Below, in pieces: positions 8,494-31,147 of a stretch of DNA of 64,000 nt. Origin of the DNA: Vicinamibacterales bacterium (GTDB lineage Bacteria > Acidobacteriota > Vicinamibacteria > Vicinamibacterales > UBA2999); assembly GCA_030680175.1 (NCBI GenBank), contig JAUXWO010000090.1, positions 9,933 to 73,932 of the forward strand. Reading direction: 5' to 3'. The notes beneath the pieces are model-generated. The model worked only from the letters and a program-made list of their open reading frames with translations. It was not told where the DNA came from and did no database searches. A program made the translations under genes and the position numbers. How positions within the stretch are numbered: the first letter of the stretch is position 1; the number at the start of each line of letters is the position of its first letter.

Positions 8494-10644
8494 CTACTGA
8501 CGGAACCACCCGGCGAGACGGCGGAGAAATGTCTCCCGGTCGTGCAGGTCGCACGTGTCGACGGGCGCCGTGCCGCGCACGAAGTGCTCCCAGTAGACCG
8601 TCGAGCGCTCCTCGATCGACCCGTCGTCGCGCACGCTCTGCACCGCGCGACAGCCCTCGTCTGCCCGCAGGCCGCTGAGGCGACAGATCTCGACGTTGGT
8701 CAGCGTGGCCGGCGCCGTGAGCCATGACGCGCGGTGGCCTTTCGTGGCGGCCTTCATGAAGGCCGTCCACATCGGCACCGCCACGTCGCCGGCGTACCCG
8801 TTGCGCATGATCGGCTGCGGCTGGTCGAACCCGACCCAGACGCCGGCCACGAGCCTCGGCGTGAAGCCGACGAACCACGCGTCGTGGTAGTCGTTGGTCG
8901 TGCCGGTCTTGCCGCCCGCCGGCATCCGGTAGCCGAGTTGCCGCACGCGCCAGCCCGTGCCGCCGTCAATGACGCCCGCCAGCATGCTTGCCATCTGGAA
9001 CGCCGTCGCGGGGGTGACGACCTGGCGGCTGTCGTCGACCGCCTGGTAGAGCACCGTGCCCTCGGCGTCCTCGACCCGCCGGATCAACACGGGTGCATGC
9101 CGCACGCCGCCGGCGGCGAACACGCCAAACGCCGAGGTCATGGCCTGCAGCGTCACTTCCCCCGCGCCGAGCGCGAGCGACGGGACCGCGGGCATGACGC
9201 CGATCCCGAGGTCCGCCGCCGTCTGCACCGCATGACCGACGCCGAGATCCTGCAGCATGCGCACCGCGGCGCGGTTGCTCGACACCTTGATCGCCTCGCG
9301 CATGGTCATCGAGACGGCGTCGACGCGGCCGTCATCGGGTGTCCATGCGCCGCTCGCGAGCTGGATGGGCTCGTCGAGCCGGTCGATGATCGTCGCGGGG
9401 GTGTAGCCGGCTTCGAGCGCCGCCGCATAGACAAACGGCTTGAACACCGACCCCGGCTGGCGCAGCGCGTGCACGGCGCGGTTGAAGTTGCTGTCGGCGA
9501 AGCTGCGGCCGCCGACCATCGCGCGGACGTGGCCGTTGCGCGGGTCGATGGCCACCAGCGCGCCCTGCAGCACCGGGGCGCCGGCCGCGCGCACCGTCTT
9601 GCCGCGGCGGTCGAGGTCGGCGAGCGTCTGCTGGACCGCGGCCTCCGCGGCCTTCTGCATCGCGGGATCCAGCGTGGTGTAGACCGTCAGCCCGCCCTGG
9701 TACACCCGGTCGCGGCCGAACCGCTCGATGAGCTCGAGCCGTGCCTGCTCGCGGAAGTACGGGCCAATCGGCGCGGCGCGGCGCAGCCCGTCGTGGAGCG
9801 CCACCGGCTCGTCGAGCGCGTCCGTCCGCGTCGCGTCGTCGATGACGCCCGCGTCGCGCATCACCGTCAGCACGAGGTCGCGACGCGCGACGGCCCGCTC
9901 GGGATTCGTCGTCGGCGCGTACGTCGTCGGCGCCTTGACGAGGCCGGCCAGCAGGGCCGCCTCCGACAGCGTGAGCTCGCGCGCGGCCTTCCCGAAATAG
10001 CCGAGGGCCGCGGCTTCCGCGCCGTAGAGCCCGGCGCCGAAGTAGACCTTGTTCAGATAGAGCCCGAGGATCTGGTCCTTCGTGTACTCGCGCTCGATGC
10101 GCAGCGCGAGCACCACCTCCTGCAGCTTCCGCGTGTAGGTCTTCTGCGACGAGAGCAGGCTCTGGCGCGCGAGCTGCTGCGTCAGGGTGCTGGCGCCCTG
10201 AGCGCGACGGCCTTCACGCAGGTTCGCCAGCATCGCCCCGAAGACGCGCACCAGATCGATGCCGTCGTGGTCGTAGAAGCGCTGGTCTTCCAGGGCGATG
10301 AGGGCCGAGACGAGGTGCGGGGACACGGCATCGAGCGGCACCTCGATGCGCCGCTCGTCGTAGATCTGGAACACGTGCTCATCGTTGGCGTCGAGGAACA
10401 TCGTCGCCTTCGGCATCTCGCCGAGGCCACGCACCGCGTCTCGGTCGGGCAGGCCCGAGAGGACGGCAACGCCGATCCAGAGTGTGCCCACGGCCGCGAC
10501 GGCGTGCGCCGCCACCCCGAGCACGGCCACCCCCAGAAACGCACGCGGGAAGGCGGCCGCCAGACACCTGGCACGGTGAGCGAACCGGGACGCCGTGAGC
10601 GCGTCGAGACGTGAAGCCATGCCGCCAGCCAGAGCAATTCGCAC
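8494..10644 (-). CDS. mrcA: Penicillin-binding protein 1A (bifunctional glycosyltransferase/transpeptidase)
   Basis: GT51 motifs EDQRFYDHDGID and GASTLTQQLAR are present. The transpeptidase domain has a SxxK-type PGSVFKP motif. The start may instead be the ATG at 10620. Confidence 0.9.
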   Translation of the reverse strand: MRIALAGGMASRLDALTASRFAHRARCLAAAFPRAFLGVAVLGVAAHAVAAVGTLWIGVAVLSGLPDRDAVRGLGEMPKATMFLDANDEHVFQIYDERRIEVPLDAVSPHLVSALIALEDQRFYDHDGIDLVRVFGAMLANLREGRRAQGASTLTQQLARQSLLSSQKTYTRKLQEVVLALRIEREYTKDQILGLYLNKVYFGAGLYGAEAAALGYFGKAARELTLSEAALLAGLVKAPTTYAPTTNPERAVARRDLVLTVMRDAGVIDDATRTDALDEPVALHDGLRRAAPIGPYFREQARLELIERFGRDRVYQGGLTVYTTLDPAMQKAAEAAVQQTLADLDRRGKTVRAAGAPVLQGALVAIDPRNGHVRAMVGGRSFADSNFNRAVHALRQPGSVFKPFVYAAALEAGYTPATIIDRLDEPIQLASGAWTPDDGRVDAVSMTMREAIKVSSNRAAVRMLQDLGVGHAVQTAADLGIGVMPAVPSLALGAGEVTLQAMTSAFGVFAAGGVRHAPVLIRRVEDAEGTVLYQAVDDSRQVVTPATAFQMASMLAGVIDGGTGWRVRQLGYRMPAGGKTGTTNDYHDAWFVGFTPRLVAGVWVGFDQPQPIMRNGYAGDVAVPMWTAFMKAATKGHRASWLTAPATLTNVEICRLSGLRADEGCRAVQSVRDDGSIEERSTVYWEHFVRGTAPVDTCDLHDRETFLRRLAGWFRQ

Positions 10645-14782: not shown

Positions 14783-14966
14783 GATAGATCGACCGATCTC
14801 GTGATGTGGTGATCTCGAGATCTCGAATCTTGCGATGTTGCTTCGAACCTCTATTTATCTCGCGATTCTACGATGTCCCGGCGATCATCCGGTAGATCAC
14901 CGCATCGCAGCATCCGAACATTTCGGTCACCACATCACCACATCACGAGATCCGTAGATTCCGAAC
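14783..14966. repeat. Inter-tRNA spacer with GATCT/GTGATGTG-type short repeats and a perfect 19-bp inverted repeat
   Basis: gatctcgtgatgtggtgat (14795-14813) is the exact reverse complement of atcaccacatcacgagatc (14934-14952). Confidence 0.85.
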
Positions 14967-27460: not shown

Positions 27461-27462
27461 AC

Positions 27463-27632
27463 AGCGATCAGTGGTCGGCTGTCGGCTATCAGCGATCGGC
27501 TTTCGGCTTTCGGCTTTCGGCTACCAGCTTCCGGCGCCACCCCGGCACCACGGCACCACGGCACCACGGCACCTCGGCACCCCGCCCCCAGGCACCCCGG
27601 GCACCCAGGGCACCCCGGGCACCCCGAGCACC
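27463..27632. repeat. Composite array: CGGCTNT heptamers then GGCACCNC 8-9-mers (tpiA-secG spacer)
   Basis: The first part reads cggctgtcggctatcagcgatcggctttcggctttcggctttcggct. The second reads ggcaccacggcaccacggcaccacggcacctcggcacc...ggcaccccgggcacccagggcaccccgggcaccccgagcacc. Confidence 0.9.
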
Positions 27633-27702
27633 TTGTCCCCGACCGCCCCGCCGTTGTATGATTGCGGTTTGTGACGCCGGGCAGATCCGGCGCAGAACAT
27701 CC

Positions 27703-28138: not shown

Positions 28139-28224
28139 GCGGAAGTGGCGGAATGGCAGACGCACCAGCTTGAGGGGCTGGCGGGGGCAACCCCGTGGAG
28201 GTTCGAGTCCTCTCTTCCGCACCA
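28139..28224 (+). tRNA. tRNA-Leu (anticodon GAG)
   Basis: The acceptor stem is GCGGAAG/CTTCCGC. The anticodon stem-loop is CCAGC-TTGAGGG-GCTGG. It has a long variable arm (CGGGGGCAACCCCGT), T-loop GGTTCGAGTCC, and encoded CCA. Length is 86 nt. Confidence 0.9.
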
Positions 28225-28602
28225 ACCTCAAGGCCCGCTTCAGGCGGGCCTTTCGTTTTGGTGCCTCAGCGGGACTCAGCCACTCGGTCGTCGCGCTCCG
28301 CGCTCGACCTGGAGGGGTCGAGTCCCTGGTTCCGCACCAACCTCAAGGCCCGCTTCAGGCGGGCCTTTCGCTTTGGTGCCTCGAGAGGACTCAGCCACTC
28401 GGTCGTCGCGCTCCGCGCTCGACCTGGAGAGGTCGAGTCCCTGGTTCCGCACCAACCTCAAGGCCCCTTCAGGCGGGCCTTTCGCTTTGGTGCCTCGAGA
28501 GGACTCAGCCACTCGGTCGTCGCGCTCCGCGCTCGACCTGGAGAGGTCGAGTCCCTGGTTCCGCACCAACCTCAAGGCCCCTTCAGATGGGCCTTTTGTC
28601 GC
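28225..28602. repeat. 3.3 tandem copies of a 115-bp unit, each with a terminator hairpin and a mimic of the tRNA-Leu 3' end
   Basis: The units are 28225-28339, 28340-28454 and 28455-28568, with a partial unit at 28569-28602. Each unit ends in gtcgagtccctggttccgcacca, compared with the genuine gttcgagtcctctcttccgcacca. Confidence 0.9.
28230..28260 (+). terminator. Intrinsic terminator after tRNA-Leu
   Basis: The stem aaggcccgc / gcgggcctt has loop ttcag and is followed by tcgttttg. The same hairpin recurs at the start of each 115-bp repeat unit. Confidence 0.7.
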
Positions 28603-28721: not shown

Positions 28722-30287
28722 ATGGCAACGCCGCAGGAAAAGCTGGCTGAGTCTCTTGATGCCCTGCACGCGCTGCAGGCGCGCAGCGTGGCAATCCGCT
28801 CCGCTGATTTGAGCCGTACGCACCGCGAGCGCCTGCTCGGCGCCGGTTTCCTGCGGGAAGTGATCAAGGGCTGGTATGTCCCCGCGCGGCCGGACGAGGT
28901 GCCGGGCGACAGCACGCCGTGGTACGCCTCGTTCTGGGATTTCTGCGCCGCCTATCTGGCCGCGCGCTTCGGGAAGGACTGGTGCCTTTCTCCCGAGCAA
29001 TCGCTCTCCTTGCACGCCGGTAACAGGGCCGTGCCGGCGCAGCTGCTCGTGCGCACGCCCAAGGGCGGCAACAAGCCCACCGCGCTGCCGCATGGCACGT
29101 CGCTGTTTGATGTGCGCTATGCGATGCCGAAAGACAGCGAGGTCGTCGAGCGCGATGGTCTGCGGCTGTTCTCCGTTCCGGCGGCACTGGTGACGATATC
29201 GGAGCAGCACTTCGGCCGTGCGGCAACGGATGTGCGCGCAGCCATGGCGGGCGTCAAGGACGCCTCTGACGTGCTTGCCGTCCTGCTCGAGGGCGGCCAC
29301 AGCACGATCGCCGGGCGCCTGGCCGGCGCGTTCCGCAATGTCGGACAGGCGCGTATCGCCGACGGGATTCTCAAGACGATGACAGCGGCCGGCTACACGG
29401 TGCGGGAGAGCGATCCGTTCGAGGACCAGCCGGGCATCGTGCTGGCCGGCCGTGACGTTTCGCCCTACGTGAACCGCATTCGCCTGATGTGGGATGCGAT
29501 GCGTCAGCCTGCGCTGGATGCGTTTCCTGCCGCACCCGGACTCTCCCGCCAGCTGGAGACGTATCTGAAAGCCGTCGAGGACGTGTATGTGAACGATGCC
29601 TACCACTCCCTGTCGATTGAGGGCTACCGGGTCAGCCGCGAGCTCATCGAACGTGTGCGCAGCGGTGCGTGGAATCCCGATCAGAACGCCGAGGATCGTG
29701 AGAATCGCAGTGCACTCGCTGCGCGCGGGTACTACGATGCGTTCGGCGCAGTGAAGGCGAGTATCGGGAACGTGCTGCGCGGCGATAATCCTGGGATAGT
29801 CAGCCGCGATGATCACTCTGGCTGGTACCGGCGCCTGTTCGGACCGAGCGTGAGCGCGGGTCTCATCCGCGCTGCCGATCTGGCGGGCTACCGCAGCGGA
29901 CCGGTTTATATCCGGCGCTCGATGCATGTGCCGCCGCCGCGCGAGGCGGTGCGCGATTGCATGCCGGCGCTGTTCGAGCTTCTCGCGTCGGAGCCTGAAC
30001 CGGCTGTGCGCGCCGTGCTCGGGCACTTCGCGTTCGTTTACATCCATCCTTATATGGACGGCAACGGAAGGATGGGGCGCTTCCTGATGAATGTGATGAT
30101 GGCTGCGGGCGGCTACCCGTGGACCATCATTCCCCTTGAGCGGCGTGACGAGTACATGGCCACGCTCGAATCCGCGAGCGTGAAGCAGGACATCCGCCCG
30201 TTTGCGGCTTTCATCGGCGGCCTGGTGCGCGACGGCCTGCAAGGCAAGCCGCCGCCGCCCGTGCCGCTTCCGCGCGCGCGGTCATGA
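28722..30287 (+). CDS. Fic/DOC family protein (large, with N-terminal AbiEi-like domain)
   Basis: The Fic core motif is HPYMDGNGRMGR (HxFx[D/E]GNGRxxR). An upstream SLSIEG matches the [S/T]xxxE[G/N] inhibitory-helix motif. The N-terminus (RERLLGAGFLREVIKGWYVPARPDE) resembles AbiEi-type wHTH domains. Confidence 0.9.
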   Translation: MATPQEKLAESLDALHALQARSVAIRSADLSRTHRERLLGAGFLREVIKGWYVPARPDEVPGDSTPWYASFWDFCAAYLAARFGKDWCLSPEQSLSLHAGNRAVPAQLLVRTPKGGNKPTALPHGTSLFDVRYAMPKDSEVVERDGLRLFSVPAALVTISEQHFGRAATDVRAAMAGVKDASDVLAVLLEGGHSTIAGRLAGAFRNVGQARIADGILKTMTAAGYTVRESDPFEDQPGIVLAGRDVSPYVNRIRLMWDAMRQPALDAFPAAPGLSRQLETYLKAVEDVYVNDAYHSLSIEGYRVSRELIERVRSGAWNPDQNAEDRENRSALAARGYYDAFGAVKASIGNVLRGDNPGIVSRDDHSGWYRRLFGPSVSAGLIRAADLAGYRSGPVYIRRSMHVPPPREAVRDCMPALFELLASEPEPAVRAVLGHFAFVYIHPYMDGNGRMGRFLMNVMMAAGGYPWTIIPLERRDEYMATLESASVKQDIRPFAAFIGGLVRDGLQGKPPPPVPLPRARS

Positions 30288-30324
30288 AGGGCGCGGCGGA
30301 TCGAGGCCTCGGCAAGGGATGTGC

Positions 30325-30358
30325 GGGCGGCCCGGTAGTGGAACGTCAACGACACCCC
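30325..30358. repeat. Half copy (right arm) of the 112-bp palindromic element
   Basis: gggcggcccggtagtggaacgtcaacgacacccc aligns with gggcggcccggtagtagatcgtcaacgacac(g/c)cc in copies A and B. Confidence 0.75.
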
Positions 30359-30666
30359 CTTTAATCCCGGTCGGCCCTTGCGTTGGCGTTGCGGAGGCCG
30401 ACGTGGGAGGCGCGCGATGGGCGTCAGTACGCAACGTGCGCCGCAGGGAGCGTGCGCTTTCGAGCGCCGGCGCCGTAGGCCCAGCCGAAGGGGGGCCGGG
30501 TAGGCGCGGCGCGATGGGCGTCAGCACGAAAGCGCTCGCGCACGGAGGCGCAGGTGGCGAGCGCGCCCTCCCGGAGGCCGGAGCGACGGCAACGCAAGGG
30601 CCGATCGCGATTTGGGGGGGGGCGGGACTGCGGCGAGGCCGGTCTTTAGGTACGGAGCGAGAATCC

Positions 30667-30971: not shown

Positions 30972-31147
30972 AGATATCTCGCGATGTCGTGATGTGGTGA
31001 TCTGGTGATGGGATGTGCGATGTCAGGATCTCACGATCTATCTCGTGAGCTGCCCCGATCTCTCGATCTGCGTCCCCGCCGACAGCGGCGCGCCTTGTGC
31101 CGAGAGCCGGAAGCCGAAAGCCGATCGCTGATCGCTGATCGCTGACC
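30972..31147. repeat. Composite repeat field: GATCT/GTGATGTG words, then seven GCYGANN heptamers
   Basis: The first part reads gatatctcgcgatgtcgtgatgtggtgatctggtgatgggatgtgcgatg...gatctctcgatctg. The second reads gccgaga gccggaa gccgaaa gccgatc gctgatc gctgatc gctgacc. Confidence 0.85.

Follow-up and report, generated by a model that had tools for sequence, protein, structure and literature searches.

The genes for tRNAs and for tmRNA are classical targets of integrases and the main entry points for genomic islands; to our knowledge, the elements that use these entry points carry genes. The ssrA islands of Dehalococcoides integrate in the T-loop class (sublocation II) and display tandem att repeats, with a conserved motif beside each of them (PMC3146451). 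CIMEs, as cited in that article, are flanked by att sites, encode nothing for integration or transfer and may be arranged in tandem with further elements (PMC3146451). After integration, the CTX phage presents one new dif site together with attP2 and attP1 (PMC3089051). The tRNA gene fragments left by integration are described as partial, non-functional copies of the 3′-end located downstream of an intact gene (PMC9897764).

Here, we describe a tandem array within a 64-kb window (the whole stretch of DNA that was analyzed), in which 115-bp units found directly behind a tRNA-Leu(GAG) gene are copies of one discrete, gene-less module family present in Vicinamibacterales genomes and in soil metagenomes (loci other than the window are designated by L numbers; A stands for the 3′-end of the target gene, A′ for its inverted copy, and R1 for a covariance model of the module). 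The features of the locus are as follows:

28139–28224, forward strand: tRNA-Leu(GAG), on which ARAGORN and Rfam agree (Rfam tRNA, 52.4 bits)
28204–28224: segment A0, the last 21 nt of tRNA-Leu(GAG), CGAGTCCTCTCTTCCGCACCA, from T-loop C56 to CCA
28225–28339, forward strand: unit 1, 115 bp (R1, 76 bits), with the hairpin at 28230–28252, A′1 at 28258–28277 (TTGGTGCCTCAGCGGGACTC), AGCCA at 28278–28282, the core hairpin at 28283–28309, the connector at 28310–28318 and mimic A1 at 28319–28339
28340–28454, forward strand: unit 2, 115 bp (R1, 71 bits), with the hairpin at 28345–28367, A′2 at 28373–28392 (TTGGTGCCTCGAGAGGACTC), the core at 28398–28424 and mimic A2 at 28434–28454
28455–28568, forward strand: unit 3, 114 bp, 99% identical to unit 2 (repeat search, R1), with the hairpin at 28460–28481, A′3 at 28487–28506, the core at 28512–28538 and mimic A3 at 28548–28568
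28569–28597, forward strand: partial fourth unit, linker hairpin only (TRF; the same in the independent contig L136), AAGGCCC at 28574–28580 and GGGCCTT at 28589–28595 enclosing a variant loop
28598–28721, no strand assigned: AT-rich junction with three AATAAC(T/C)TA repeats, in which promoter-like hexamers were found; outside the module
28722–30287, forward strand: Fic-domain ORF, 521 aa (Pfam Fic, 5.3e-14), a neighbour outside the module family

An earlier note on this DNA had reported head-to-tail 115-bp units behind the tRNA gene that differ at a few positions, and ARAGORN, Rfam, TRF and a repeat search all bear this out: there are 3.3–3.5 copies of 114–115 bp, 95–99% alike. TRF returned a single array at 28198–28596 (period 115, 3.5 copies, 95% matches), and the repeat search placed units at 28235, 28350 and 28464, units 1 and 3 being 95% and 99% identical, respectively, to the reference unit 2. 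The 24-mer GGTCGAGTCCCTGGTTCCGCACCA, which ends each unit, occurs exactly three times, as against none in shuffled sequences, and the junction between the tRNA end and the hairpin, TTCCGCACCAACCTCAAGGCCC, occurs four times. The tRNA 3′-end mimic noted in each unit is confirmed as a copy matching the real end at 20 of 24 nt (88% identity over 34 nt in the repeat search) and is an att-type duplicate starting in the T-loop; the A-to-A gap is 94 bp and non-coding. The hairpin AAGGCCC..GGGCCTT is found in all units and in the final partial one; it had been taken for a terminator in each, but only that of unit 1 satisfies the hairpin-plus-T-run rule, the others having the stem with a shorter T run.

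Homology of the partial fourth unit to the full units stops at about 28597, and the abrupt AT-rich junction and Fic gene of the earlier note follow as described; the same junction is repeated in L136, a contig from the same organism in a short-read assembly (Logan SRR13727517) that starts inside the last unit and is identical into Fic. The junction between the array and Fic is thus real, since an independent assembly reads identically across it, and the break of that contig inside the array is as expected of a repeat; the copy number of the units is that of the one assembly analyzed here, L136 supporting the Fic-side junction only. The exact protein of the Fic ORF is also present in SRR13727517. 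Within the AT-rich junction, AATAACTTACG resembles the sequence following CCA at the integrated inserts of L010, L011, L037, L045 and L059. The contig of L001 ends (at 9917) exactly at the tRNA CCA, and L136 begins (position 1) inside the array; modules appear to break short-read metagenome assemblies at tRNA genes.

Every unit also contains two parts that the earlier note did not record, an inverted copy of the tRNA end and a conserved core hairpin. Throughout the family the parts are ordered as gene 3′-end (A), linker, A′, TCAG(G/C)CA, core, connector and second direct A, A′ being the reverse complement of A. The linker, of 14–35 nt, is usually a small hairpin, and in type B modules, which include those of the window, a terminator-like one; the core is a conserved hairpin of ~40 nt (CTCGGCC-N-TCGCGC-TNC-GCGC-T-CGGCC); the connector preceding the second A is TTCGGGCA in type A and TAGAGGGGT in type B. 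At all sites the second A matches the gene from T-loop position C56 (type A) or T55 (type B), identity running to the end of the gene or a few bases past it. A and A′ vary with the neighbouring gene; the core is constant.

The two arms pair in register, with 78% of the cells paired, as compared to 37–45% when the partner is slid, and the variable T-loop base covaries between A′ and A (CG 19, UG 5, UA 4, GC 1). Likewise, the sole core pair left free by the search pattern is always paired (CG 29, UA 3, GC 1), UA being found in window units 1 and 2 and in L097, and GC at the tmRNA locus. Complementarity between cognate A′ and A exceeds that between non-cognate arms for type B, Leu(TAA), Lys, tmRNA and most Leu(CAG) modules, and is degenerate in many type A Leu(GAG) copies. 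When the 70 nt downstream are compared with the tRNA end, significant complementarity is confined to module-bearing loci, L013 being marginal; it is therefore no general property of terminators, and A′ as a generic extension of tRNA terminators was rejected. In the window, A′ of units 2 and 3 holds GAGAGGACTC, the exact complement of GAGTCCTCTC in the real tRNA and not of GAGTCCCTGG in the mimic, whereas in unit 1 it is the mimic that A′ (GGGACTC) matches; all three mimics have CCCTGG where the tRNA has CCTCTC.

At the Leu(TAA) loci TCC stands in the gene in place of CCA and recurs in A and A′ alike, not the CCA added to the tRNA. The template of the copies was therefore DNA, which led us to reject a retro-copy of mature tRNA, or a primer-binding site. 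A decayed tRNA, for example a Leu-CAG read from GACTCAG, was rejected as well: GACTC is simply GAGTC of the T-loop read on the opposite strand, ARAGORN found no extra tRNA, and Rfam at E<=10 returned only the real tRNA. Some tRNA-Leu genes lack an encoded CCA, namely those of L088, L092, L096, L117 and L133 (GCA|TTT) and of L090 and L102 (GCA|TAT). CCA is kept in the last copy of the module in five CCA-less loci (as TCA in L088); in L117 the last copy has CCC, in L102 it repeats TAT, and in L090 it is lost. In L098 (560–631), the 5′ part of a tRNA-Leu(CAG) (GCGGGAGTGGCGGAATT) is fused directly to the core region of a module, a deletion or a misassembly.

A related piece lies behind the same tRNA in L002, L008 and L019, each ending with the tRNA end of its own genome. 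A profile and the covariance model R1 matched the three units of the window as well as L002, L008, L019, L023, L032 and L045, and weakly L033; in 1.37 Mb of related loci all strong R1 matches fall directly behind tRNA-Leu or its displaced 3′ part, and by the same searches the module is absent from this locus in most relatives. When metagenome contigs were scanned with the 27-mer at the centre of the module (22 fixed bases), 55 stretches were retrieved, ~44 of which are true modules with the same layout; several of the contigs share the tRNA-Leu(GAG) sequence with Vicinamibacterales MAGs. The target genes are tRNA-Leu with anticodons GAG, CAG, TAA and TAG, tRNA-Lys(CTT) and, in L082, tmRNA. Thus, the module is found behind at least six different tRNA or tmRNA genes and at about 50 loci, and none of these instances contains cargo. 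Many copies are visibly decaying (L023, L031, L032, L045). The module was not found in viral contigs by our scans or in plasmids and phages by BLAST, nor behind the tRNA-Asp and tRNA-Val genes of the window. A literature search, of incomplete coverage and hence weak as evidence of novelty, returned no description of such a module; a gene-less module behind tRNA and tmRNA genes, with direct and inverted copies of the gene end, is apparently undescribed so far.

Two other repeat families were seen at these loci. One starts at the CCA of tRNA-Leu (TTCGACTCG...CTCGCTCATGGC..GTCGAAGG), has inverted T-loop-like ends and was found in L005, L009, L012, L016, L021, L025, L033 and L035. The other ((G/A)(A/C)CTTCGCTCG...GCGAAG..GCGAAGGCGGAC) follows either a tRNA end or the last copy of a module: it comes directly after CCA in L043 and L049, and after a module in L081, L086, L092 and L133.

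The module lacks defining features of each of the nearest known systems. It shares with T-loop-class islands the direct repeat of ~20 nt from the T-loop, with the gene intact at one end, the tandem downstream repeats, the adjacent motif and the tRNA or tmRNA target; unlike them, it has neither cargo nor integrase between the repeats, its units measure about 100 bp instead of kilobases, it includes an extra inverted copy of the 3′-end, and one and the same core is found at many genes. As with CIMEs, it is bounded by att repeats, has no recombination or transfer genes and occurs in tandem; known CIMEs, however, are kilobases long and tied to one ICE and one site, as compared to ~75–95 bp between repeats and at least six targets for the module. 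With the CTX attP(+) and the attC sites of integrons it has in common target-like sites in direct-inverted-direct order, a spacer of ~40–90 nt between the inverted and the last direct copy, and an imperfect hairpin with conserved internal mismatches. In contrast to both, its target is the T-loop of tRNA and tmRNA genes and not dif (XerCD) or attI (IntI), neither a phage genome nor a gene cassette is attached, and XerCD and IntI are not implicated. Like REP/REPIN sequences and MITEs, it is small, non-coding, hairpin-forming, multi-copy and extragenic. Its arms, however, follow the neighbouring gene where a MITE has fixed terminal repeats, and its duplication, at about 21 nt or more, is unlike the short target-site duplication of a MITE; nor is it dispersed as REP/REPIN sequences are, its strong matches in the 1.37 Mb being confined to tRNA-Leu ends. 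The tRNA gene fragments left by integration share the copied 3′-end, to which the module adds an inverted fragment and a core in a conserved composite.

In L008, L110, L125 and L131 the tRNA is followed by the module, a terminator and the AGCTAACGG flank, and in L025 the 3′ part of the tRNA is followed directly by the same terminator and AGCTAACGG flank, with no module in between. The empty site that the earlier note had proposed to look for among relatives is represented by L025: the comparison with the four other loci is a clean presence/absence of exactly the linker, A′, core and A. Islands with anticodon-loop-type repeats precede the module in L045, where a 1.5-kb insert has a 56-nt copy extending from the anticodon loop to the 3′-end, and in several metagenome loci, e.g. 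L087 and L089, and island-like sequence directly follows the last A of the module in L002, L093 and L111; both arrangements would be expected if the module entered at the T-loop and thereby displaced the older 3′-end, with the sequence downstream of it, outward. Further islands bounded by tRNA fragments are present in relatives (L008 at 17024 and L025 at 15030; of the T-loop type in L057 and L025), and T-loop-type repeats bound real inserts in L057, L025, L112, L130 and L138.

In L130, the gene for a tyrosine integrase (Phage_integrase, Pfam 2e-25) stops 124 nt short of an attR of the T-loop type, located at the same tRNA-Leu(CAG) family, and a module comes after that repeat. The arm of the homologous island in L112 aligns to A′-TCAGGCA-CTCGGCC of the module with a score of 17.5, above the shuffle maximum of 14.5 (0/500); the L130 island has TCAGCCA...CACTCGGCC, and L138, whose integrase is 77% identical to that of L130, has GGCACTAGCCGTC at the corresponding place. 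The similarity amounts to a short motif shared by three islands, and on this basis the core may contain binding motifs for the L130-type integrase family. The proximity to integrase genes that the earlier note had raised is thus seen at L130, but no integrase of the L130 family is encoded anywhere in the 64 kb of the window, and most modules have none beside them. The contexts of integrases 50% identical to it (L139–L141) contain no tRNA fragment. In L057 (16620–16751, reverse strand), an L130-type integrase is reduced to its last 44 codons, which abut a T-loop-type repeat (AATCCCCCTTCCGCACCA); this may be a split or decayed integrase gene at an att site.

The explanation that we favour, at somewhat less than an even chance, is that the module is a non-autonomous, cargo-less mini-element, one of a family specific to tRNA and tmRNA genes in Vicinamibacterales-type Acidobacteria, which a tyrosine integrase supplied in trans placed at the T-loop and which was amplified in the window by unequal recombination. 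Its anatomy, the family, the range of targets, the presence/absence polymorphism and the recurrence of tandem arrays are observed; its mobility, the enzyme and the route of amplification are what we infer. The element would consist of A (the 3′-end of the target gene from the T-loop), the hairpin linker, A′ and the ~40-nt core hairpin. A T-loop-class tyrosine integrase encoded elsewhere would recombine it with the T-loop of the gene, which would be rebuilt with the A of the element, the former 3′-end being displaced behind the core to become the mimic. Mobility is read from the distribution of the module and from one empty site, which could equally be the product of precise deletion between the A repeats; no circular or excised form and no cargo-bearing element of the family was seen among the loci studied. 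The classical integrase model also has no need of A′, and the match of the arms to unrelated Leu, Lys and tmRNA genes around a near-identical core is not accounted for by this or any other model. In all likelihood the array is selfish or neutral DNA, and the succession of terminator-like hairpins is the one side effect that is obvious.

In the window, a single module bearing direct repeats of ~55 bp would have given rise to the three copies, through unequal recombination or slippage on the one hand or repeated integration on the other. The period of the array equals the A-to-A distance, and every module is flanked by such repeats, formed by A plus the hairpin. The mimics share changes that are absent from the tRNA, so that the later duplications copied an already diverged unit, and the last amplification steps, given CCCTGG in the mimics and CCTCTC in the tRNA, cannot have been new integrations into the tRNA gene itself. 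The simplest route of amplification in the window is unequal recombination, and re-integration at a mimic is a possible one. Tandem amplification recurs in the family, arrays overlapping modules at four loci according to TRF (115 bp x 3.5 in the window, 146 bp x 2.3 in L087, 56 bp x 4.0 in L002 and 32 bp x 3.0 in L105); the periods in L002 and L105 correspond to partial units, for which slippage or unequal exchange is the only possible source. Of what the earlier note had put forward, amplification of an att-bearing unit is the part that fits best.

A variant of the mini-element explanation, which we regard as rather unlikely, is that the substrate is a folded single strand, in which the A′-core-A hairpin would imitate a double-stranded tRNA or tmRNA 3′-end and one strand would be exchanged with the T-loop, in the manner of the CTX phage at dif or of cassettes at attI. 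Such an attachment site is conceivable because the direct-inverted-direct layout matches that of the integrated CTX phage. The arms might then be re-matched to new genes, perhaps if, during replication, one arm of the imperfect palindrome served to correct its partner.

Three other explanations of the units themselves are, in our view, improbable, each to a similar degree. The earlier note had pointed to classical att scars, in which each unit would be the remnant of a separate cargo-bearing island at tRNA-Leu whose cargo was later lost. The att-type duplicate stands, and the tRNA is an integration hotspot, islands bounded by tRNA fragments being common at tRNA-Leu in relatives (L045, L008, L025, L057), and the Dehalococcoides ssrA islands, with their tandem T-loop repeats and conserved motif beside each, offer a precedent (PMC3146451). 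Descent from separate islands does not hold up, however: one cargo-less module is seen throughout the roughly 50 loci, with the same core behind six different genes; its ends are identical at every site, which makes random deletions unlikely; the window units, 95–99% identical including the linker, are copies of one another and not the products of independent events; and the inverted copy A′ is left unaccounted for. A functional structured RNA, for instance a tRNA-like or acceptor-stem-mimic hairpin produced together with the tRNA or beside it and serving perhaps as a decoy, as serial terminators or in processing, would account for the long imperfect A′-core-A hairpin with its in-register pairing and some covariation, and the window unit does fold better than shuffled sequences (z = −2.9 as RNA and −6.7 as DNA). 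Type A modules, moreover, lie between the tRNA and its terminator and would be co-transcribed; but type B modules, those of the window included, lie behind the terminator hairpin, so that the transcription status differs with the subtype. The serial terminators or small RNAs of the earlier note are further disfavoured by the Rfam and ARAGORN results, by wobble pairs that show no strand bias (38 G.T as against 52 C.A) and mismatches that are mostly pyrimidine-pyrimidine, by the degenerate T-stem and acceptor pairings of window units 2 and 3, and by the many decaying copies and the absence of the module from the same locus in most relatives.

Replication template switching without a recombinase is doubtful to the same extent. 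Here, the terminator hairpin and the palindrome of the T-arm would be the sites of fold-back copying, which would produce a direct-inverted-direct triplication of the tRNA end, and the core would be copied from another module by way of the T-loop microhomology GA(N)TCC. A direct-inverted-direct order is the signature of tandem inversion duplications, and it is the layout of the module; the arms end on both sides of the core at the T-loop, a short sequence common to all tRNAs; the linker is itself usually a hairpin; the partial-unit arrays of L002 and L105 indicate that slippage is active; and A′ and the mimic of unit 1 changed together (GGGACTC/GAGTCCC), as if one arm had templated the other. 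Three ordered switches would nonetheless be needed each time, yet across about 50 sites the boundaries are the same and the core is near-invariant; a T-arm reverse complement in the middle would be expected of a pure inversion duplication, and is not seen; and the restriction to genes that integrases classically target would be a coincidence. An assembly artefact, the tandem copies being a collapsed or expanded repeat, is highly improbable. Short-read assemblies do break here, L136 starting in the last unit and L001, the closest relative, ending at the CCA; but the units carry their own differences (unit 1 as compared to units 2 and 3, and the variant fourth hairpin), and the same module is found in independent genomes and metagenomes, with arrays elsewhere, so that only the exact copy number depends on the one assembly.

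If the mini-element explanation is correct, a gene-less element of ~100 bp uses the entry point of islands and spreads over several tRNA genes and tmRNA, as the integrase counterpart of a MITE; by adding secondary attachment sites behind tRNA genes, it would also shape where islands land. The inverted arm raises the question of whether some tRNA-targeting integrases act on folded single-stranded substrates, and, should the folded strand be the substrate, the module would be a re-targetable, gene-less integration device of a kind not described before. The tRNA 3′-end fragments made by modules could also pass as island boundaries in island-finding software.

Upstream of the array are pgk, tpiA and secG, and downstream, beyond the Fic ORF, a YciI-like gene and then, on the opposite strand, apbE and nqr genes. 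The TPI of the window (Acidobacteriota, order Vicinamibacterales) is 91% identical to that of L001 and 85% identical to that of L002, and in most related loci with enough downstream sequence tRNA-Leu(GAG) follows tpiA on the same strand. None of 80 related loci has Fic, ApbE or NqrF behind tRNA-Leu, from which it follows that the conserved gene order ends at the tRNA. A right end of a "Fic islet" from relatives was ruled out, given this count and the finding of no further copy of the tRNA end in the window. Exact look-ups of TPI and SecG for strains with other copy numbers retrieved no record. L002, a MAG whose TPI is 85% identical and whose tRNA-Leu is the same, bears the label "uncultured Chloroflexia bacterium", and Bifidobacteriaceae or Bifidobacterium is the label of L001, L033 and L040; to judge by the neighbours of these loci, the taxon labels are probably wrong.

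Several other stretches of the window are rich in repeats. Short repeats (gatgtggtgat / cgagatc / gatctc), similar to those between tpiA and secG described below, occupy 14800–14960, in the spacer between tRNA-Val and tRNA-Asp, and 30985–31060, after the YciI-like gene. Following Fic, 30300–30660 is GC-rich and non-coding, with a 32-nt direct repeat and long imperfect inverted repeats (30355–30399/30576–30620 and 30430–30465/30524–30559). The spacer between tpiA and secG (27461–27700) consists almost entirely of short tandem repeats, with TCGGCTT x 7 at 27475–27522, CACCCCGG x 11.5 at 27538–27632 and additional 9-mers; an inverted copy of the GCCGAAA heptads is found at 31099–31138, near the end of apbE.
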